In this document: positions 7,687-53,440 of the stretch, one piece after another
Layout: the number at the start of each line of letters is the position of its first letter
Position numbering within the stretch: the first letter of the stretch is position 1
NCBI GenBank assembly: GCA_040954595.2
Contig: CM082590.2
Location: forward strand, 6,696,001 to 6,760,000
DNA from: Balanoglossus misakiensis
Taxonomy: Eukaryota > Animalia > Hemichordata
Reading direction: 5' to 3'
Length of the DNA stretch: 64,000 nt
The notes under the pieces: generated by a model
What the model was told of the DNA's origin: nothing
The model's database searches: none
Seen by the model: only the letters and a program-made list of their open reading frames with translations
Program-made: the position numbers and the translations under genes

Positions 7687-8945
7687 TTTTTTTTTTTTAT
7701 TTATTTCCATTCATTTAATTTTACATGTATCATAAAGATAAATCGTGTTTTGATGAAAAAAAATAAATAAATAAATAAAAAATAATACTATATAAAAAGA
7801 GATTCACCAGGTACATTTGTTTAACAAAATAATTACATCTCAGACGGAAGCAATGATTTTCTTCCAATAATGGGTGAAATCTAGATTATTATTCCTTCTG
7901 AGTATTTGGTGCATAAATTGTAGGTATCTGTAAAATATATCGAAATTGGTTTTTGCTCTAATGCTGTTAATATCATGTTGTAAATGGACCCATGAAGCGA
8001 ATACACAATACTTTGCAATAGTAATGACAATGTTTACAAATCTATAAAGAGGATGACTGTACATAGTTTTGTAACCAAGAATAATAGTTTCTAAGTCGAC
8101 CTCATGACATATGCCAAGTTTGCTGAGCAAAGCAGATAAACGCTGCCAAAAATCCCCTAAACGTTGACATTTTAAAAATAGATGCTCATAAGAATCAGTT
8201 ACATTACAAAGACAACATAGATCATTTTTACTAATTTTCCATCTTAAAAGATTGATGCCACATGGCAAAATGTTATGCATAATCTTAAAGTTAAATTCAG
8301 CAAGTTTCCTATCACAGCACAATCCAGTCGTTTGGTTAACCCATATAGTTCTCCACTGTAGTGGAGTAGTCATGGTCAAACGACGATTCCATGTATTTTC
8401 ACAATATGGACGAATAAAACGATTTTGCACAAAAATACTGTAAAAAAATTTTGAAGTAAGGCGAGACAGATCATTAGGTAAAACAAAAACTTTTCCATTG
8501 ACATGAAGAAAATTCTTTTCTCTACGCATCTGATGCAACTGAGTACCTTTCAACACAGACTTCCATTCTCTGGGAATAAGATTCCGCAACTTCATCCATT
8601 CAACTATCCAATTTGACTTATTCTCGAGTTTTTGTAACAACAGTGTAGGTGGAAGAAAATCGCCGTTGGTATCGACAATGTCCTGGACATAGATAATATT
8701 TGAGTGAATCCAACCAGGGAAAAAAAGAGTCTTACCATTATCTGAAATGTTGATATTACCCCAGATAATTTGATTACGCACATCTAAATGACTGAGTTTG
8801 GAGAAAGTGACGCAACCACCTTTTGCACTATGCCAAGCTGAAATAACTTGTTTATAGAAAAAGGGAATTCTCTCGAGAAATGGGAAACAGGAAATGTTGC
8901 TAAAATTGAAATGAAAAATAAGAAAATCTGGACCATAGTGCCCGA
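7687..8945 (-). mobile_element. 5'-truncated L1/Tx1-type LINE (3' end of ORF2) in HDC intron 1
   Basis: About 368 open codons ending in a zf-RVT-like CCLC...SYEHLFLKC; AATAAA plus poly(A) at about 7687-7706; 17-bp TSD GCCGCGTTTCCATTATT at 7670-7686 and 8946-8962. Confidence 0.9.
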
Positions 8946-9053
8946 GCCGCGTTTCCATTATTGATAAACCTGTTTTGCAAACTCTTCAAAAATCGATTTT
9001 CAGACCAACGCAGCCGAAGGCACACAATGCAGAGGTGTGACTCTTTGCGATAT

Positions 9054-41758: not shown

Positions 41759-42340
41759 GTAACTAATGCGACCGCTAGGTGGCGCCTGCCAGCTAGAACG
41801 CTCTGCGATACCACAGTGTCTTTTTCATTGCTGGGTTATTTTAACTTTACAGTAAAACCTGTCTAAACCAAACCCTGTCTTATCTGGAAACCTGTCTAGA
41901 CCAAACAAAATTTCCTGTCCCTTCGACATAGAACCACATGTTAAAAGAACCGCTATAAACAGGACACCTCTGCAAACCGAACAATTTCTTCAGTCCCTTT
42001 GGTGTTCGGTTTAGACAGGTTTTACTCAGTGTACCGTAAAACACTTTATTTTCGCGAGTTAAAATTTTCGCGATATCGAGAGAGGCCACTGTTTCGCGAG
42101 TGTTAATTTTCGTGTTCTCTTATTTCATTAACTGCATCGTTATTTTAAAAAAAAATTACATGTACGTGACTTTTTATTTTCACGCTATTTTGGCTCTCGA
42201 GTATTTCGCGGAAATTTATTGCTCGCGAAAATAAAGTGTTTTATAGTATGCATTCTGTTCAAACTATCAAAATGAGCATATATATATATATACAAAACAG
42301 TGACAAAATATACTGTCACGGAATTGCTAGGTCAACGCCC

Positions 42341-44100
42341 CACACAAGACTCGTATCTCAAGAAATGCGACTTTTTCCTGATTCTCAGACTGAGACACCC
42401 TGTAGCAAGAGAAACTGTCAATTTTCCATGATTGGGGCGGAGCTTGTATCACGTGGGCTTGTTGCGTGTAAAGTAACTCCCCAGCTCGACATCCAAACGC
42501 AGACTAGACATGGCGGTTGAACTGCGAGCATCGTGCTCTCATGTGTAGTGATCTGAATTCGTACTTTACCTCTATCTTTCTTATATTGTCGTTCAAACCT
42601 TTCTCCACGTTTGTGGGAACGCTTTTTCTGTAACCTCTGAGAGGTCTAGTTGTCTACGGATCGTAATTCCGAGGTTTTTCTTGGTATTTGTGTGAGCGCA
42701 ACGCTCAGGTCGGTCGGTCGGTCTTTTCAGCACATCTCTTAGCGCACGTTCTGCCGTGCGCGAGGTAAATCGAACCAGGACTAGTAACGGACCGGTCTAC
42801 GCCGTCAAGGCTCGATCGTGCTACGTTTACGCTACCGTTAAGTTGGCTGTTTGGTCCAAGGTTCGTCATTCACTAAGGCTTGACAATTTTGGGGACCTCA
42901 GTCCGACATAATTTCCGTTACAATACCTATAATTCATACCGAAACAATTTCCCATTAACCGCGTCCGCAAAGAAACTGATATGTGTATCATACACACTGA
43001 AAAACTATTGTGGCGAACATCCCCACTTCCAGGGATTTATTATTATTCTAAAAACATTTCTTGATAAGAACACGTAAATAGGCAATTTTTACATTCCTTG
43101 CAAAATGCTGGGTGGTAATATAACGTATAAATAGATACAAAACAGCTTGTTATGCTATCAAGCGAATATTAGGGGGGGAAATGAAATTTCTTTTGGTCAC
43201 GCATACGTGCTACGCTCTTTATTTGTTTTACGTTTTCTGTCTGGCCTAGGTATTCAAATGAGATATGACTATATTTGGAACAAAATATTAAATAAGAGGT
43301 CAACACGTCTTCGACTGGTCTGGTTCCCTAACTACCGTGTAACGCTGCTGGCACTGCACATGGGGCAAGGGACTGCCATGCGACCGGAACCTTCCTTATT
43401 ACCATGACAATGCATTCAGCTTGCTAAAGTACAATGCATATGCAAATTAGTCAACCTAATTATTCCGCACACAAGACTCCTATCTCAAGAAATGCGACTT
43501 TTTCCTGATTCCCAGACTGAGACACCCTGTAGCAAGAGAATCTGTCAATTTTCCACGATTGGGGGCGGAGCTTGTGGGCTTGTTGCGTGTAAAGTGATTC
43601 CCCTCGACATCCCAAAAGCAGACGAGACATGGCGGTTGAACTGGGAGCATCGTGCTCTCGTGTGTAGTGATCTGAATTCGTAGTTTACCTCTATCCTTCT
43701 TATATTTTCGTTCAAACCTTTCTCCACGTTTGTGGGAACACCATTTCTGTAACCTCTGAGAGATTTAGTTGTCTACGGATCGTAATTCCGAGGTTTTTCT
43801 TGGCATTTGTGTGAGCGCAACGCTCAGGTCGGTCGGTCGGTCTTTCAGCACATCTCTTAGCGCACGTTCTGCCGTGCGCAAGGTAAATCGAACCAGGACT
43901 TGTAACGGACCGATCTACGCCGTCAAGGCTCGATCGTGCTACGTTTACGCTACCGTTGAGTTGGCTGTTTGGTCCAAGGTTCGTCATTCACTAAGGCTTG
44001 ACAATTTGGGGGACCTCAGTCCGACATAATTTCCGTAACAATACCTATACATGTAATTCTTACTGAAACAATTTCCCATTAACCACGTCCACAAATAGAC
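42341..44100. repeat. Direct duplication of an approximately 635-bp segment (42341-42975 and 43468-44100)
   Basis: Both copies start CACACAAGACTC.TATCTCAAGAAATGCG and align throughout. Confidence 0.85.
43078..43465 (+). pseudogene. Degenerate U5 array unit: U5 3' remnant (Sm site, 3' box), spacer, and DSE of the next unit (octamer 43440-43447)
   Basis: ATAGGCAATTTTTACATTCCTTGC...AAATAGATACAAA aligns with the U5 3' end at 52526-52590; the block is duplicated at about 46259-46715. Confidence 0.7.
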
Positions 44101-44843
44101 TGACCGTGTCCGTGTCAATTCAATGCATATTCATAGTTTCGTTTGTCGCATTGCGCTTTATTTGACCTGGCGTGTGCGGTCAGTGCGCAGGCGTCCGTGT
44201 ATTTGGTTTTTCTCCGTATTAAATTTGGAAGCCCACGTGTATGCGTCCCCGTGTTTTTTTACCCAAGCAGTTGCTGGAAGGAAGGTGGATACGACGCCCA
44301 AGTACATGTAAGTTTTGAACATGTCAATGCGTTAGTGAGAGTTGGTAGTGCGAATCTGTGGGGATATGATGATGGACTTTGATGGTAGCCGCCGTCGTGG
44401 ATGACTACCGTTCCCTTTGAACCGGTTGTTCGGGAACTCTCTGTTGAGTCGCGGCTTCTCGTGACACGCAGCTTTGAATGAATATACAAACATCACTGTT
44501 TCTTCCCTGTCATTAAAATTATCGAACGTAATTGTCATTGCAAATATTTCACAGATGGTATTTTGTCGTTCCGTTAATTACTGACAAAAGATATCAGAGC
44601 TTTCTTTTCTGACAATAAAATATCTTGAAGATCCAAAGTGTCTCTTGCTGGCAAGCAAATTTTCCTCACGCCGTGACATATGGGGGCTCGTCCGGGAGAA
44701 CGGCAATTTCGTTCTAATAAATCGGCGAGGATATTTGTTTCTTGGTAGATTTCTGAACTTGTGAAATCCACAGACGATATAGTATTTGTGAAGCTGAGCA
44801 TAGTTTATTTTTATTTCCCGTAAATCCTAGTACATGTACTTAA

Positions 44844-46025
44844 AGGGACAAAGTCTCTCTCTCACTGCCCTTTTTTCCATGAATTATGTTTGATACAAGA
44901 CACCATTTATGTAATTCTACATGTGGATATGTAGTGAATCAACGTTCGACCACACACGCCTTCCATCCCACTTGTAGACACGAGAGTGAAAAAACTCGCC
45001 AAAATGAATAATCGTTCTTTACCATTTATTCATTTTGGGCGAGTTTTTACTGTCATATCATACAAGTGGAATGGAAGTTTCGTGTGGTCGAATGTTGATT
45101 CACCATATATCCACATGTAGAATAACATAAACGGCGTCTTGTATCAAACGTAATTAATGGAAAAGGGGCAGCTGGAGAGAGACTTTGTCCTGGGAGGTGT
45201 GTGTGGTTGAACGTTGATTCACTATATATCCACATGTAGAATAACATAAACGGCGTCTTGTATCAAACATAATTAATGGAAAAGGGGCAGCGAGAGAGAG
45301 ACTTTGTCCTGGGAGGTGTGTGTGGTTGAACGTTGATTCACTATATATCCACATGTAGAATAACATAAACGGCGTCTTGTATCAAACATAATTAATGGAA
45401 AAGGGGCAGCGAGAGAGAGACTTTGTCCTGGGAGGTGTGTGTGGTTGAACGTTGATTCACTATATATCCACATGTAGAATAACATAAACGGCGTCTTGTA
45501 TCAAACGTAATTAATGGAAAAGGGGCAGCTGGAGAGAGACTTTGTCCTGGGAGGTGTATGTGGTCGAACGTTGATTCACTATATATCCACATGTAGAATA
45601 ACATAAACGGCGTCTTGTATCAAACGTAATTAATGGAAAAGGGGCAGCTGGAGAGAGACTTTGTCCTGGGAGGTGTATGTGGTCGAACGTTGATTCACTA
45701 TATATCCACATGCAAAATAACATAAACGGCGTCTTGTATCAAACGTAATTAATGGAAAAGGGGCAGCTGGAGAGAGACTTTGTCCTGGGAGGTGTATGTG
45801 GTCGAACGTTGATTCACTATATATCCACATGTAGAATAACATAAACGGCGTCTTGTATCAAACATAATTAATGGAAAAGGGGCAGCGAGAGAGAGACTTT
45901 GTCCTGGGAGGTGTGTGTGGTTGAACGTTGATTCACTATATATCCACATGTAGAATAACATAAACAGTGTCTTGTATCAAACATAATTAATGGAAAAGGG
46001 GCAGCTGGAGAGAGACTTTGTCCCT
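44844..46025. mobile_element. MITE family A copy with eight tandem 119-bp repeats of its right TIR
   Basis: TTAA on both sides; 119-bp periodicity over about 45073-46025. Confidence 0.85.
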
Positions 46026-46297
46026 TTAAAGCAGTGACTTAAAGCTTTCTACTCAGTACGTATTTCGTTTTGTTATAATTGCCTAAAATTGTAAGGCGTA
46101 TATTGTCGTGACTGATCCCGGTTGATATTTCTTGGACACTGCACTTCTTGCAGGGTAGTAGACGCACAATAGCATTGTGTGAAACTATCTGGATATCAAC
46201 TGGCGGGTCCGCTTCCTTGAGTCCAAATTTGTTTAATGAAATTGGATTTACTTCTTTTTTATTATTCTAAAAAAACATTTCTTGATAAGAACACGTA

Positions 46298-46365
46298 AAT
46301 AGGCAATTTTTGCATTCCTTGCAAAATGCTGGGTGGTAATAAAACGTTAACATAGATACAAAACA
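46298..46365 (+). pseudogene. U5 3' remnant (Sm site, decayed hairpin, 3' box)
   Basis: AATAGGCAATTTTTGCATTCCTTGCAAAATGCTGGG...ATAGATACAAAACAGC. Confidence 0.7.
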
Positions 46366-46648
46366 GCTTTTTATGCTATCAAGCGAATATAAGAGGGGAA
46401 ATGAAATTTCTTTTGGTCACACATACGTGTTACGCTCTTGTTAGTTTTCAGTTTTCCGTCTGGCCTAGGTATTCAAATGAGATATTGCTAGATTTGGAAC
46501 AAAATTTAAATAAATTTTTATAATGAAATAAGAGGTCAACACGACTTCGACTGGTCTGGTTCCCTGACCCCCGTATACAGCTGCTAGCGCTGCACATGGG
46601 GCAAGGGACCAATCAGACTAGACTTCAGTGCGACCAGCACCTTCCCGA

Positions 46649-46956
46649 TTACCATGACAATGCCTTCAGCTTGCTAAAGTGAAATGCATATGCAAATTAG
46701 TCATCCTAATTATTCATCTGAGGAGCTTCTTGGAATTATATTCCATTTTTATCCGAATATAATTTATAAAGTCACTGTTTCCATACGCCTTTTTAAATGT
46801 TATTTCCTTGTTCATTACTCTTAAAAAATAATTTCTTGATAAAAAGACAAACGCATACAGGCTGCTAAACACGTAATTAATACATGCCAAAGTCTCTAAC
46901 CGCACATAGAGTTTTGAACGCTCAGATACGGTCACCACGCCCTCACGGTGATTGAG
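46649..46956 (+). promoter_or_regulatory. U5 promoter (DSE with octamer 46690-46697, PSE region about 46895-46956) upstream of the disrupted U5 gene
   Basis: Homologous to 55025-55329. Confidence 0.7.
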
Positions 46957-47007
46957 TTACTCTGGTTTTTCTGCAATATACGAATAAATCTTTCGCCTTT
47001 TACTAAA
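46957..47007 (+). pseudogene. U5: U5 snRNA 5' half, interrupted at loop 1 by the retrotransposon
   Basis: Matches 55330-55380 with one mismatch up to ...GCCTTTTACTAAA, then switches to element sequence. Confidence 0.93.
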
Positions 47008-47110
47008 TCGACAGAAGAAAGAGAGTGAGGACAGTGAGGAGAAGTAAAGTGTTTTTTCTGCGTGCGCCTTCAACCACCTGCACGGAGAACAGTGAGTACG
47101 ACGCGGACCG

Positions 47111-48619
47111 ATGCCGCCAACGGTCCGCAAGGACCGTTCGGTCCTTCTGAAATTTAAGGGGGGGGAGACTACGGTTACGGTTGAGAAGGTCTTCGGGGAG
47201 TTGCGGAAGGCCGATATTGATGTCAGTACACACCTTCAAGCCGTCCAACGGCTGCCGGGCAATGCTTTTGATGTAACTTTCACGTCGCTGGCCTTCAGAA
47301 GGCTGTTTGAGGAGAAGCTACGCGCTAACGAGGAGTTCGATGTATCAGTTATTGAGGAGAATACAGTGGTTACGGCCCTGTATATCGATATTGGGTTGGA
47401 TGACAACTACGTTCGCCACGTGCTGTCTCAGTACGGAGAAGTGGTTGCCTCCCGTTTTTGCACTTTCCAGAAGGAAAAGATATTCAACGGTACGCGACAG
47501 TACAAAATGAAGCTAAAAAAGAACATTCCCTCTGTCATACGGCTAGGGAACAGGAATGTGTGGCTTTCGTACATGGGCCAGCCGCGGACCTGCAGCAGAT
47601 GCAACGAGGCCGGACACTTTTCGCGCGACTGCAAGACCATCCGCTGCTTCAAGTGCCTCGAACTCGGCCACAGGGTCGAAGACTGTGCGAATGCGGTCAA
47701 GTGTTCTATTTGTGGGGAAGGGGGACACGTTTTTCGGAACTGCCCCATTTCTTTTGCGAGGAAGCTTTCCCTGTCTGCGAATTGGGAGGGTGGTGGGACT
47801 CTTCCCGGCGGCGTTTCGAGTGAAAGTGGGGCACCTGGGGATGCAGACAGCGTGCCTGGACCTGAACCACCTGTTGAACACGCGGCAGTCACCACTGAGC
47901 AGCCGATTCCTGAGCCCCTGATCGAACACTCCGCGGACGCTGAGGTTGGCGAGCACCTGCCCGATCCCGACAACGAGAGCATGGATTTTATTAGCGCTTC
48001 GGACAAACGCAAACGCCCTGACCAGGATAGTGACGACGACAAAGCAGAGGACAGCAAATTTGTGTGCATAGACCACGAGGTAGCCCAGCCCGCTACTGTA
48101 GGCGCTGGAGAAGACATTCTTCCTTATACCCCTGTTTTGTTCACTTCTTCTTTTGAGTTACCGTCCCTCGAGACGTCTGTTCCTGACAGTGAGTCCCTGG
48201 CGATTGACAGCGACGCCTGTTCGCTAGACTCGGCAGCCTCTGTTAACTCCTCTGTTTCTCTTGCTGCCTCTACCTCTAGTTCTGCCTTTTCTACCGTTCA
48301 ATCTGTCTCTAAGGCAGGTTCGAGAGCGCATGTAAAATTTCGTCACTGTCTTCTTCACGACAATTCAGCCGTTCGCTTGCGCTGTAGCGTTTTTTCAGGT
48401 CAACCTTGTGAGGAAGTAATCACAGGTTGGAGTGCTCTGCGCGATCATTCTTTAAAGGTTCACGGTCAAGAATACCTCAAGACTACTTGTTATGTGGCAC
48501 AGAAATGTAGTAGGCTTGAGTTTGACGGTCCGGCGGAATGGTTCGCCCATGTTCTATCGAAACATGGCAGGTACGCCTGTAGCAAGTCCACTGGGTTCTT
48601 TAACTCTTTCTTTGAATAA
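47111..48619 (+). CDS. Retrotransposon ORF1 (502 aa): RRM-like N-terminus, three CCHC zinc knuckles, acidic/Ser linker, two C-terminal C2H2-like fingers
   Basis: CSRCNEAGHFSRDC, CFKCLELGHRVEDC, CSICGEGGHVFRNC; uninterrupted ORF. Confidence 0.92.
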   Translation: MPPTVRKDRSVLLKFKGGETTVTVEKVFGELRKADIDVSTHLQAVQRLPGNAFDVTFTSLAFRRLFEEKLRANEEFDVSVIEENTVVTALYIDIGLDDNYVRHVLSQYGEVVASRFCTFQKEKIFNGTRQYKMKLKKNIPSVIRLGNRNVWLSYMGQPRTCSRCNEAGHFSRDCKTIRCFKCLELGHRVEDCANAVKCSICGEGGHVFRNCPISFARKLSLSANWEGGGTLPGGVSSESGAPGDADSVPGPEPPVEHAAVTTEQPIPEPLIEHSADAEVGEHLPDPDNESMDFISASDKRKRPDQDSDDDKAEDSKFVCIDHEVAQPATVGAGEDILPYTPVLFTSSFELPSLETSVPDSESLAIDSDACSLDSAASVNSSVSLAASTSSSAFSTVQSVSKAGSRAHVKFRHCLLHDNSAVRLRCSVFSGQPCEEVITGWSALRDHSLKVHGQEYLKTTCYVAQKCSRLEFDGPAEWFAHVLSKHGRYACSKSTGFFNSFFE

Positions 48620-51600
48620 TGGGTTACGTGGATTTTCTTTTACTTACCGTTATGTTATTTTGTGTTTCTTTAAACGTTAATGGGTTGCGGGATGATCTTA
48701 ACCGTCAAGCGATTTTTAGTTGGTGTAAAGATCAGAATTTCGATGTGGTTTGCCTGCAGGAGACTCATGCGTGCTCCGACGCAGACATTGCTAAATGGGG
48801 TGGGGAGTGGGGCGGGTCTAATTATTGGTCCCTGGGTACGCATAAAAGTTGTGGGGTGGGAATTTTAATTTCTCCCAAGTCTTCCTGGGTCCTGAAAAAT
48901 CGTTTGGTTGACACGGAAGGCCGGGTTATTTCTGGGGACTTGGTTAACGCTGGCCATACGGCACGTATTTGTAATATTTATGCTCCTGTTAACCCCGCTT
49001 GTCGGTCCCGTTTTTTTAGTTCTTTGCATATTTTTACAGGTGCAGCCAGGGGTATTTTGCTTTGTGGCGATTTTAATTGCGTTGTAGGGGTCGAAGACAG
49101 GTTTGGGATTGGCATCAGTCCTGCCCGGTTTATTGGCGCGGATATCTTGAAAGCAATATGTTCGGATTTCGACCTCATTGACGTCTGGCGAACCAGAAAT
49201 CCGAACGGCCGCGGTTTCACCTGGCGCGATGCGAACAATACACGTGGCAGTCGCCTCGACAGATGGTATGTTTCCAAGCATTTGAGTTCCAATTCTGATT
49301 TATTTCCTTGCCCATTTTCTGACCATGATGGTGCGGCTATTAACATTTCCTTTCGTTCTTATCAGACACCAGGCCCTGGGGTTTGGAAATGCAATAACTC
49401 CCTTTTGCGTAATGAGGCCCTACTTGATTTACTTAAAAGTAAGTTTTCTGACTGGAAAACATTGCAACCCGGCTACGACTCCATTGTTGAGTGGTGGGAT
49501 GATTACAAAAGTCGCGCGAAAGAGCTGATCGCTGATTTCGGAAAGCGCGAGGCCTGCCGGCGTCGCACGGCGTATCAAAAAGCTGTCAACGAGTTCAACC
49601 GTCTCACTTCGCTCCTCAATACTGGTGACAAGTCAGACTCCACCTTGACCGAGTATAGTCTGGCCCGCGACAATTGTAATCGCTTATTGCAAAAGCGCAT
49701 TGCCGGGGTTAAAGTCAGATCGCGCGCCCGGGTCTTGGACGCGAAGGAGAAATGCTCGCGGTATTTTTTTGCCCACGAGCACAAACGAGGGGCACGTAAG
49801 ATTTTTAACAAAGTCATTGATTCAGATAACAAGAGTCACACCAACACTCATGACATTCGGCGCGCCTTGCATGCATTTTACTCAGATCTTTATAAGACTT
49901 CCACAGACTTAGATGTAGATAAGCAAGATTTTTTCTTAGACAAATTAAGTCAGCGCTTATCGCAGATTCAGAGTGCTAAGCTTGAGGCACCCATCTCTCT
50001 TGCTGAGCTTACAGTTGCGCTCAAGGCGATGGATAGTGACAGATCGCCCGGCATTGATGGTCTCACTGTTGATTTTTATCTGGCTACCTGGGAGTATGTT
50101 GGGCCTGTCCTCTTGGAGGTCTACAATTCAGTCTTTGACAATGGTCTTTTATCTACTTCTCAGCGTTCTAGTCTGGTCGTGCTTCTTGATAAGTTGGATC
50201 CACGTCCAGATGACCTTCATTTGCATATTAAGAATAAGCGTCCTATCTCGCTGCTGAATGTCGATTACAAGATTCTGACTAAAGTTCTTACTGCTCGTCT
50301 TGGTACTGTCATGGCTGATTTGGTCAGCCCCTTTCAAACTTGTGGTGTCAAGGGCAGGTCCATTGTCGACAATATCCACATTGCCAAGGATTTTATTGAG
50401 TTAATTAACTCTAGGGATGGGGTGGGGGCTGTGGTTTCACTTGATCAGGAAAAGGCGTTTGACAGAGTCGAATGGTCCTTTCTCCGCAAAGTTCTTCAAC
50501 GTATGAATTTTGGCCCTGTCGTGTGTAGGTGGTTTGACATCCTGTATAGGGACATTAACAGTGTGATTCTCTGCAATGGTTTTACTTCTGATAAGATTAA
50601 CTTACAGCGCGGAGTGAGACAAGGGTGTCCCCTATCTCCTTTGCTTTATGTTCTTTTTATAGAGCCATTCGCGGCAGCGGTGCGCAGTGATCCTGATTTT
50701 ACCGGCTTTCTGTTCCCGCGAACGGACTGTCGGCTTTTGCAGTATGCGGACGATAATACTGCACTCATCACGAGCAACAAGTCTTTTCGTTCATTGTTCG
50801 CAATTTGTGATAGTTTTGGACAGGCATCCGGGTCGCGCCTGAACATTACTAAGTGCAAGGGTTTGTGGTTAGGTCGCTGGCGCGGGCGCACGGATTGTCC
50901 AGTACCGATCAACTGGAACAGCGACAGCATTACAATCAACGGGGTCGTGCTCGGAAGTGCGCCAGCTATGGATCGCAATTGGGAAAGTAAAGTCCTTCGT
51001 TTATCGCGTATTTTGAGCAGTTCCCAAACTCGCGAACTCTCGCTGTTCTCCAAGGCGCGTTTCATCAACACTTTCGCGCTTCCGATTTTTTTCTATTTGT
51101 GGTCCATTTTTCCGTTTCCGACAAAGTTCATCCGGCAAGTGAACTCGCTGATTTTTGGTTTTATTTGGAAGAAGTCTGAACTGGTGAAACGCGAAGTTCT
51201 GACCCTTCCGGTCGGTCAGGGAGGCCTCGGCCTCATCAACGTTGGACACAAGGCCAAGTCATTGTTTCTTTTGAATTTACGCTATTTGACATGTAATTTA
51301 TCTCCGTATAGTTTTTTACTAAGGTGTTATGTATCCTTACCTTTGCATAGATTTTTTCCGGATTTGCATTCGAATTTAAATCCGTCCTTTAACTGCCCTA
51401 AGTGGCATTCCAATTTCGTAGAGCTAGTCTTTAGAATAAAAGAACTTGCACCAGATGTAGCTTGGGCCAATATTTCGGCCAGTCTTCTTTATAATATTTT
51501 GTTTGAACATGACAAAATTGAGCCTTTGGTTGTGCGTAGAAATCCGCACTTGAATTGGAAGTTTATTTGGAAGAACTTACACTGTTTCCTGTTGGATACT

Positions 51601-52116
51601 GGACATGTGGATTTGAGCTGGAAAATCCTCCACGACATTGTGTTCACTAAACTCAAGCTGGTTAAGTTCGGTTACAGGAGACGGAGTCCTATCTGCCCGA
51701 GATCTCATTGTTCTTCTCCGGAGTCGCTGAGTCATTTATTTTGGGAGTGTCCATTTTTACGTTTAATTTGGGGATGGGTTGATAATTTACTTTGGAAAAT
51801 CAATCCTTCTTTGAGGTGTAACGCTAACCTGGTCCAGTATAGTTTACTTGACTTTCCGGTTAGCAAGGGAGATGTTCCTATGATTTTGTATATAGTCAAT
51901 ACTGTTCGCACAGCTATTTGGATTTCTCGGTGCGAAGCAGAGTATGAGCACACATTTGTTTCTGCTGATGTAGTTATCTCTCGAATAAGAGGTTCTGTGC
52001 GTTCTCGTTTGAAAGCTGATTTGTTTCGTTGGCCACGTGACCGCTTCAAGACCACGTGGTGCCGACACAGTATTCTCGCCAAGGCCAATGGTGCTGACAT
52101 TGTTATTTGTATTTGA
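48619..52116 (+). CDS. Retrotransposon ORF2 (1165 aa): AP-endonuclease, reverse transcriptase, C-terminal CCHC
   Basis: APE motifs SLNVNGL, LQETH, GDFN, SRLD, SDH; RT motifs SPGIDG, RPISLLNVDYKIL, LDQEKAFD, GVRQGCPLSP, YADD; CPRSHC..ESLSHLFWEC. Confidence 0.96.
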   Translation: MGYVDFLLLTVMLFCVSLNVNGLRDDLNRQAIFSWCKDQNFDVVCLQETHACSDADIAKWGGEWGGSNYWSLGTHKSCGVGILISPKSSWVLKNRLVDTEGRVISGDLVNAGHTARICNIYAPVNPACRSRFFSSLHIFTGAARGILLCGDFNCVVGVEDRFGIGISPARFIGADILKAICSDFDLIDVWRTRNPNGRGFTWRDANNTRGSRLDRWYVSKHLSSNSDLFPCPFSDHDGAAINISFRSYQTPGPGVWKCNNSLLRNEALLDLLKSKFSDWKTLQPGYDSIVEWWDDYKSRAKELIADFGKREACRRRTAYQKAVNEFNRLTSLLNTGDKSDSTLTEYSLARDNCNRLLQKRIAGVKVRSRARVLDAKEKCSRYFFAHEHKRGARKIFNKVIDSDNKSHTNTHDIRRALHAFYSDLYKTSTDLDVDKQDFFLDKLSQRLSQIQSAKLEAPISLAELTVALKAMDSDRSPGIDGLTVDFYLATWEYVGPVLLEVYNSVFDNGLLSTSQRSSLVVLLDKLDPRPDDLHLHIKNKRPISLLNVDYKILTKVLTARLGTVMADLVSPFQTCGVKGRSIVDNIHIAKDFIELINSRDGVGAVVSLDQEKAFDRVEWSFLRKVLQRMNFGPVVCRWFDILYRDINSVILCNGFTSDKINLQRGVRQGCPLSPLLYVLFIEPFAAAVRSDPDFTGFLFPRTDCRLLQYADDNTALITSNKSFRSLFAICDSFGQASGSRLNITKCKGLWLGRWRGRTDCPVPINWNSDSITINGVVLGSAPAMDRNWESKVLRLSRILSSSQTRELSLFSKARFINTFALPIFFYLWSIFPFPTKFIRQVNSLIFGFIWKKSELVKREVLTLPVGQGGLGLINVGHKAKSLFLLNLRYLTCNLSPYSFLLRCYVSLPLHRFFPDLHSNLNPSFNCPKWHSNFVELVFRIKELAPDVAWANISASLLYNILFEHDKIEPLVVRRNPHLNWKFIWKNLHCFLLDTGHVDLSWKILHDIVFTKLKLVKFGYRRRSPICPRSHCSSPESLSHLFWECPFLRLIWGWVDNLLWKINPSLRCNANLVQYSLLDFPVSKGDVPMILYIVNTVRTAIWISRCEAEYEHTFVSADVVISRIRGSVRSRLKADLFRWPRDRFKTTWCRHSILAKANGADIVICI

Positions 52117-52482
52117 AAGTGGGGGGTGGGTTATAGCTCATTGGTTCTGGCACTGTACAGGGATTTTCATCCTCCGTTGGTTTGATCTTTCGCTTATCTG
52201 TCTTAGATCGTCTATCACCGTCCTTCGCTACGTGATTATTGTTTCCTCTGTTGTTGTTTTAATTTTGTTTTGGTTGCAGTATTGTTCAGTTTCGGTCGTT
52301 TACTTTTCTGCTTACAATTTTATTTGGGAGAGGTAGGGGAGGTGGTACCTCCTTATAGTCAAACTAGCGTCGCTGGCCTACCTTGGGCTTCCAGTTTTAC
52401 GATATAGTTTCCTTGAATAGATCTTGTTGATCTTGTTGTTTTTGTTTAGCTTTTGATATTTAGGTTCCCTAAATCAAAAAGG

Positions 52483-52563
52483 CTTTTACTAAAGATTTCC
52501 GTGCAGAAGAACAACTTATGAGTCTATAGGCAATTTTTGCATGCCCTGCTAAATGTAGGGCGA
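52483..52563 (+). pseudogene. U5: U5 snRNA 3' half (TSD, stem, Sm site, 3' hairpin), followed by a 3' box
   Basis: CTTTTACTAAAGATTTCCGTGCAGAAGAAC...CAATTTTTGCATGCCCTGCTAAATGTAGGGC, matching 55370-55450. Confidence 0.93.
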
Positions 52564-52656
52564 TAATTAAACGTAAAAATAGATACAAACCAGCTTAGGG
52601 GAATTAACTTGAATTTATTTTTGCTCAAACATACGAGTTACGTTCCTTTTTATTTT

Positions 52657-53333
52657 TTTGTGCAGTCCTCCACTCTATGGCCGAGTTGGAGGCACTTGAA
52701 ACAGCGGATAGTTTTGCACTCGCGTGAGAAATGTCCGGCCTCATTACATCTGCTGCAGGTCTTCGGCTTGACCCATGTAAGAAAAACAGACGTTTCGATT
52801 CCCAAGTCGTATCACTGAGGGGATATTCCGTTTCAGTTTCATTCTGTACTGCCACGTGCCGTTAAAGATCTTCTCCTTCTGAAATGTACAGAATCTAGAG
52901 GCCACCACCTCCCCGTACTGGGATAGCACGTGGCGAACATAGTTGTCGTCTAAGCCCACATCGATGTACAGGGCCGTGACCACTGTATGTTCTTCGATGA
53001 CCGAAACCTCGAACTCATTATTTGCGCGCAGTTTCTCCTCAAACAACCTTCGGAAGGTTAGCGACGTAAATGTCACATCGAACGCATTGCCCGGCAGCCG
53101 TTGGACGGCTTGAAGTTGGATACGAACATCAATGTCGGCCTTCCTCAACTCCTCGAAAACCTTCTCAACCGTAGTCTCCCCCCCCCCTTAAACTTCAAAA
53201 GGACCGAACGGACCTTGGGGACCGTTGGCGGCATCGGTCCACGTTGTACTCACTATTTTCCGTGCAGGTGGTTGAAGGCGCACGCAGAAAAAACACTTTA
53301 CTTCTCCTCACTTTCTTTCTTCTGAAAAGTCGA
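52657..53333 (-). mobile_element. Second, diverged copy of the Tx1 element (5'UTR plus 5' part of ORF1, frameshifted, 3'-truncated)
   Basis: Encodes MPPTV..DRSVLLKFKGG...VEDC; 5' junction U5...TACTAAA|TCGAC, the same as in the full-length copy. Confidence 0.9.
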
Positions 53334-53384
53334 TTTAGTAAAAGGCGAAAGATTTATGCGTATATTGCAGAAAAACCAGAGTAA
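53334..53384 (-). pseudogene. U5: Inverted U5 snRNA 5' half, with PSE remnant at 53385-53440
   Basis: Reverse complement is TTACTCTGGTTTTTCTGCAATATACGCATAAATCTTTCGCCTTTTACTAAA. Confidence 0.92.
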
Positions 53385-53440
53385 CTCAATCACCACGATG
53401 GCGTGGTGACCGTATCTGACCGTTCAAAACTCTAAATGCG

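Follow-up and report, generated by a model that had tools for sequence, protein, structure and literature searches.

The 5′ remnant of a LINE (copy B) is joined to U5 snRNA sequence at the same nucleotide as a full-length relative (element A) in a 64,000-nucleotide stretch of the Balanoglossus misakiensis genome (the window). Copy B is a dead, frameshifted, inverted mosaic that is broken at its 3′ end. It is probably an older, separate insertion of the A lineage, later converted in mid-ORF1 by a copy of a sister lineage. The same family is likely to have inserted at this spot in U5 repeatedly.

The U5 snRNA cluster and element A

A U5 snRNA cluster on the plus strand lies at 43–55.5 kb of the window and comprises one intact U5 gene, two degenerate 3′ remnants and repeated spacer and octamer blocks (Table 1). 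The cluster has been duplicated in part at the DNA level: a sequence of ~650 bp occurs in two copies beside the U5 remnants (42338–42979 and 43465–44103; 92% identity), and a search for inverted ends at this repeat found none. Positions 44840–46030 hold a palindromic MITE-like repeat of ~350 bp, which has many copies in the window and is internally expanded here to tandem 119-bp units. Approximately 1.4 kb downstream of the intact U5 gene lies a methanethiol oxidase (selenium-binding protein) exon (56883–57073, plus strand) with neighboring exons; its best named protein matches are from echinoderms and hemichordates (77–81%). A 372-residue ORF on the minus strand (7840–8958) with a zf-RVT match is the 3′ end of another LINE and gave no tblastn match to ORF2 of element A.

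Table 1. Features of the U5 cluster, element A and the inverted block with copies B and C (window coordinates)
Feature	Position	Strand	Remarks
Second degenerate U5 3′ remnant	43078–43153		followed by spacer and octamer
Degenerate U5 3′ remnant	46299–46356	+	followed by spacer and octamer
U5 5′ half before A	46957–47007	+	own upstream block present; octamer 267 nt upstream
Element A, full length	47008–52482	+	between two copies of U5 nt 41–51
A ORF1, 502 aa	47111–48619	+	weak ZCCHC3-type RNA-binding domains; CCHC knuckles; C-terminal Cys/His region common to relatives
A ORF2, 1165 aa	48619–52116	+	AP endonuclease, reverse transcriptase, zf-RVT; no stop or frameshift
U5 3′ part behind A	52483–52562	+	79/80 identical to intact gene
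U5 downstream spacer	52563–52656	+	76/93 aligned nt identical to spacer 46335–46450
ORF1 remnant of B, codons 1–193	52657–53234	−	two frameshifts; broken at codon 193
Tract of B nearly identical to C	52844–53097	−	includes common Arg129Trp
5′UTR of B, A-lineage type	53235–53333	−	89/94 aligned nt identical to A, 80/99 to C
U5 5′ half (nt 1–51) before B	53334–53384	−	0/51 differences from intact U5, 1/51 from A half
U5 upstream (PSE-position) block before B	53385–53440	−	putative promoter; 4/50 nt differ from A flank, 5/50 from intact gene
Copy C: diverged 5′UTR and ORF1 codons 1–261	53441–54332	−	one frameshift at 53716; also a mosaic, resembling A beyond codon 200
11-nt exact match to U5 loop 1 (nt 37–47)	54333–54343	−	directly at C 5′ end; partly alignable to ORF2 too
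Decayed scrap (127 nt) of sister-lineage ORF2 3′ region	54345–54471	+	opposite to C; 71.6% over 141 nt versus A
Myb/SANT-like ORF	54478–54701	−	Pfam PF13837, E 8.6e-12; cuts ORF2 scrap
Intact U5 snRNA gene (empty target)	55330–55449	+	Rfam RF00020, 99.2 bits; octamer 264 nt upstream

Element A splits a U5 gene and is flanked by a perfect 11-bp target-site duplication (U5 nt 41–51, at 46997–47007 and 52483–52493). Judged by this duplication and by the predicted AP endonuclease, reverse transcriptase (RT) and C-terminal zinc-binding region of ORF2 (Pfam PF03372, PF00078 and PF13966), A is an APE-type non-LTR retrotransposon of the L1 group. The best PDB match of ORF2 is human LINE-1 ORF2p (8sxt; E 8e-73), which has its AP endonuclease and RT in the same order; A differs from human LINE-1 in the CCHC knuckles of its ORF1, its fixed snRNA site and the lack of a long poly(A) tail at its 3′ end. 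The zinc knuckle (PF00098) was found in six of six ORF1 rows, and CCHC zinc knuckles in ORF1 are a feature of the Tx1 clade. The C-terminal Cys/His region of ORF1 (48370–48616), common to the relatives L001, L002, P0122 and P0123 and with weak C2H2 matches in L002, is possibly a hallmark of this Tx1 branch.

Three features were noted at the 3′ end of A. A 6-nt word in its last bases (52465–52482, plus strand) recurs in U5 immediately 5′ of the duplication, and the element closes with a short A-rich stretch complementary to U5 loop 1. Rfam scored 52456–52562 as a whole U5 (34.4 bits). Chance, a snap-back and target mimicry are candidate readings of these features.

Copies B and C in an inverted block

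Direct reading and alignment bore out the claim of a sequence-only reading that B repeats the U5 junction at 47007/47008: the U5 upstream block, U5 nt 1–51 and the start of the element follow one another without interruption. B begins at 53333 on the minus strand, directly after U5 nt 51, and its first four letters are the same as those of A at 47008. The U5 half before B scores 31.5 bits against the Rfam U5 model, under the gathering score. The U5 flank upstream of this half is non-transcribed, and B is therefore not an snRNA/LINE chimera made at the RNA level. The indels between the two 5′UTRs that had been reported are also real, B having 5 nt extra and 9 nt missing relative to A, with 5 mismatches over 94 aligned nt.

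The remainder of B is decayed. One frameshift lies in a G run near 53180 (near codon 18) and the other at 52769. B has no ORF2 and was placed in the element family by its 83% DNA identity to A. No target-site duplication is visible for B because its 3′ end has been lost. B is inverted (minus strand) within the plus-strand U5 cluster. On its left, the joint at 52656/52657 connects it to the spacer behind the U5 3′ part of A, which ends at this left breakpoint of the inverted B–C block; on its right, the promoter block of B is fused to copy C. The frameshifts, the break, the inverted position and copy C have no mention in the sequence-only reading.

All three element 5′ ends in the window fall at U5 loop 1, those of A and B after nt 51 and that of C after the match to nt 37–47; as background for the latter, any U5 11-mer hits twice in 128,000 positions. 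With its truly divergent 5′ end at loop 1, C makes a stronger case than B for a sister lineage in U5. The joint between C and the ORF2 scrap (54343/54345) has a head-to-head geometry, as produced by twin priming (bioRxiv 10.1101/2025.02.02.635956). Part of the C loop match can be aligned with ORF2 too, so this joint may have arisen through microhomology. The Myb/SANT-like ORF that cuts the scrap is likely a DNA-transposon remnant.

When its order is reversed, the block lines up with a series of U5 units occupied by A, C and B, and deletions together with an inversion are the suggested source of the present arrangement.

Mosaic ancestry and origin of B

Copies A, B and C do not fit one tree, and affinity changes along the sequence. 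In the 5′UTR and codons 1–46, B groups with A, with 13 of 117 coding nt different from A and 21 from C (codons 18–23, where the indel alignment is ambiguous, are omitted from all figures for this 5′ segment). In codons 47–134, B groups with C (3 differences in 250 nt); the longest identical B–C run is 138 nt (matched by 0 of 20000 randomizations). B then stands apart from both A and C in codons 136–150 and remains unlike A through codon 192, and C groups with A in codons 200–261 (5 of 183 nt differ). A MaxChi breakpoint was located at A 47251–47266 (0 of 5000 permutations), with an A–B dS of 0.31 before it and 1.7 after it.

These changes of affinity bear on the argument for a sister subfamily. 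The many synonymous ORF1 differences between A and B had been noted correctly: over 190 codons we counted 76.5 synonymous and 25.5 non-synonymous differences (dN/dS 0.058). A comparison of dN and dS between the copies had been proposed as a check, and the result is not neutral, with 0.22 in codons 1–46 (P = 0.012) and 0.03 in codons 47–192 beside the overall value. The heavy synonymous divergence sits mostly in the C-type segment, and the part of B that bears the U5 junction is of the A lineage. Since the divergence lies in the segment shared with C, the dN/dS of the whole ORF alone is no demonstration that the junction was made by a sister lineage. The idea that B is a sister-subfamily insertion thus stands for the C-type middle of ORF1 and fails for the flank, the 5′UTR and codons 1–46.

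The tract shared by B and C also carries a common lesion. R129 is invariant in five of five rows of one ORF1 alignment and present in six of six rows of another; both B and C have Arg129Trp, which points to exchange between copies that were already damaged. B-private changes number 3 in 250 nt within the tract versus 7 in ~190 nt 5′ of it, a hint that the tract was overwritten later. In codons 1–46, the private changes are 5 synonymous and 2 non-synonymous for A and 2 synonymous and 4 non-synonymous for B. A second proposed check, the comparison of divergence in flank and element, gave similar A–B values for the flank (8%, 4/50), 5′UTR (6%, 4/71) and codons 1–46 (11%, 13/117), but the comparison is weak because only ~56 nt of constrained promoter flank survive.

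Read contigs from three runs of one sample, possibly the source sample, were compared over the body of element A only, with an 80% identity limit. An A-type ORF1 contig was found at depth 20.6, and B/C-type ORF1 letters occur on several contigs (at 47425 in run X1 they account for 274.7 of a summed depth of 295.2, depth not being equal to copy number). Contig joints go back within ORF1, one of them to codon 193, the break point of B, and loose contig ends match the sister ORF2 scrap by eye, hinting at scrambled sister-type pieces elsewhere in the genome. Run X1 gave a single contig without other letters over 49122–52482, with flat depth over 49204–51582. The sister ORF2 scrap is only ~72% alike, under the 80% limit, and the uniform X1 contig therefore does not establish the absence of a sister ORF2.

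Separate insertion and site specificity, both claimed from the sequence alone, are supported by the low dN/dS of codons 1–46, by private changes in these codons that are mainly synonymous in A and mainly non-synonymous in B, by the state of lesion-free A versus decayed B, by the start of C at loop 1 and by the U5-like half before L002. For both frameshifts of B to lie in B, the probability is 0.011. A has no lesion over 5,001 coding nt; 3.5–6.2 stops would be expected in it at 2.3–4% neutral drift (P(0) 0.029–0.002), but with only 1.2% drift the lack of lesions in A would be no surprise (P(0) 0.16) and the test loses its force. The intactness of A, its perfect 11-bp duplication and the purifying selection in codons 1–46 argue against a history in which one U5 insertion was duplicated with its unit at the DNA level, B decaying and being converted by C-type sequence, A being kept or refreshed by conversion, and the junction being inherited. 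One duplicated insertion would also give junction-bearing divergence close to that of the flank, as observed; the 5′ changes private to B appear neutral, the copies have evidently exchanged sequence and the cluster holds DNA-level duplications, all of which fit such a history. Yet the flank of B is about equally far from the flank of A and from that of the intact gene, and the loop-1 starts of C and of the metagenome locus L002 (see below) are left unexplained. We consider this history unlikely. Of the alternative that had been offered alongside the sister-subfamily idea, conversion is likely to belong to the history of the locus, given the mosaic, and duplication of a single insertion is the less likely part.

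A true mosaic sister subfamily would result if B had been inserted as it stands by a recombinant lineage, its A-type 5′ end and C-type ORF1 having been joined beforehand by template switching. Same-orientation chimeras from template switching have been described for LINE-1 (bioRxiv 10.1101/2025.02.02.635956), and both the occurrence of B/C-type letters on several contigs and the difference of B from A through codon 192 are compatible with it. Arg129Trp at an otherwise invariant residue would be unlikely in an active lineage, however, and the scarcity of B-private changes in the tract hints in the same direction, making this origin of B quite improbable. We give still less credence to a U5/LINE chimeric retrocopy or an assembly artefact, even though snRNA/LINE chimeras are known: the U5 halves of both A and B have non-transcribed promoter DNA in front of them, A has a U5 3′ part behind it, and its duplication is within U5. 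The private lesions and indels of B would not arise from a collapse of A or C, and one sequencing run, which may come from the source sample, has 76% of the sampled words of 46800–55600. Taking separate insertion and the recombinant lineage together, it is probable that U5 received at least two insertions.

For separate insertion with later conversion, a course of events can be proposed. By analogy with L1/Tx1 biology, the AP endonuclease of ORF2 would nick the bottom strand at the nt 40/41 step of U5 loop 1, this nick would prime reverse transcription, and the top strand would be cleaved behind nt 51. The U5 promoter would drive transcription of a full-length copy, whose RNA would carry the U5 5′ half, so that the same 5′ junction would be reproduced each time. 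Neighboring U5 units would have taken up A-lineage copies (B, later A) and the sister-lineage copy C, and B and C would have exchanged the 250-nt tract. Deletions would have fused C to the B promoter, and the block would have been inverted.

Relatives and known snRNA-targeting elements

U5 snRNA is listed among the targets of Tx1 families in the legend of Figure 3 of Kojima 2015 (PMC4494074), and the Tx1 family or families under this label have the same target gene and element class as A, a likeness drawn from the legend label alone. U5 targeting by Tx1 elements is thus already on record, and the locus adds modestly to the evidence that a Tx1-like LINE targets U5 loop 1. Such LINEs are barely described, and the label in that one legend was the only trace of them that we found. 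The literature search, with most subscription papers and Repbase outside its range, yielded no paper describing a U5-specific family in its text and none on mosaic lineages within one target array. B itself, as a dead fragment, adds no new mechanism; the locus supplies exact junctions and an intact, testable element, and it illustrates in detail how recombination among copies can make dN/dS a misleading argument for independent insertion.

Other families show parallels. Keno, a Tx1-clade element named with Mutsu and Dewa in Kojima and Jurka 2013 (PMC3706591), is specific for U2 snRNA (Kojima and Fujiwara 2004, quoted in PMC4494074 and PMC4640811). Like A, it is an APE-type LINE at a fixed site in a spliceosomal snRNA gene, and an ORF1 relative of A, L001, follows a U2 5′ part; the target of A is U5 loop 1, its flanks are U5 and not U2, and it lies apart from the U2- and U1-flanked loci in the RT tree. 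Several lineages of Utopia occupy a few U2 genes (Kojima and Jurka 2015, PMC4640811), resembling the present locus in having multiple lineages in one low-copy snRNA target and tandem arrays of filled and empty genes. Utopia differs in its restriction-like endonuclease (RLE-type) and U2 target, A having an AP endonuclease and a zinc-knuckle ORF1. As snRNA targets, that paper names only U1, U2 and U6. Co-transcription with the target can strengthen specificity, according to Kojima 2015 (PMC4494074).

Searches with the ORF1 protein returned four relatives at 33–48% identity and no B- or C-type protein. Viral contigs held three distant RT loci and no ORF1 relative. Three metagenome loci have a related ORF1. 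In L001, ORF1 is 26% identical; in L003, neither a U2 nor a U5 part was found upstream. L002 (70–106, 169–1662) is a Tx1-like element placed after a U5-like 5′ half that ends at nt 41 in loop 1, 62 nt before ORF1. This half contains an exact match of 14 nt; its score was reached in 21 of 5000 shuffles, and Rfam does not call it U5. The L002 junction coincides with the left edge of the A duplication (nt 40/41), which fits one conserved bottom-strand nick.

Many ORF2 relatives lie in U1, U2, 5S and tRNA arrays. Rfam, run on 29 of 62 related loci at the gathering score and on 13 at E up to 1, called U1, U2, 5S and tRNA and no U5. Because half genes fall under the Rfam threshold even in the window, we ran local BLAST for the U5 half over all 62 loci; one matched and 61 did not. 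Quick RT trees placed A among unnamed relatives, with no named Tx1 or L1 reference included, and grouped the clade containing L002 with A (SH-aLRT 97). The endonuclease tree gave no resolved grouping of A with L002.

A wider picture may be offered tentatively, and we rate it as somewhat doubtful: an old Tx1 clade would cut one position in the invariant U5 loop 1 across distant animals (nt 40/41 for A, nt 41 for L002), and two lineages ~20% apart in ORF1 would swap segments within a small U5 cluster, the snRNA array serving as a recombination ground. In this picture, remnants like B, inverted and still carrying a promoter, could also direct antisense RNA into the intact copy.

Two observations concern the relatives themselves. 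L008, L010, L011 and L018 form a well-supported clade found in mixed U1-U2-5S tandem arrays. Among L007–L062 are contigs filed under bacterial metagenome-assembled genomes (MAGs) that carry animal-type LINEs, several of them in U1/U2/5S or tRNA arrays; these are likely host DNA binned into MAGs.
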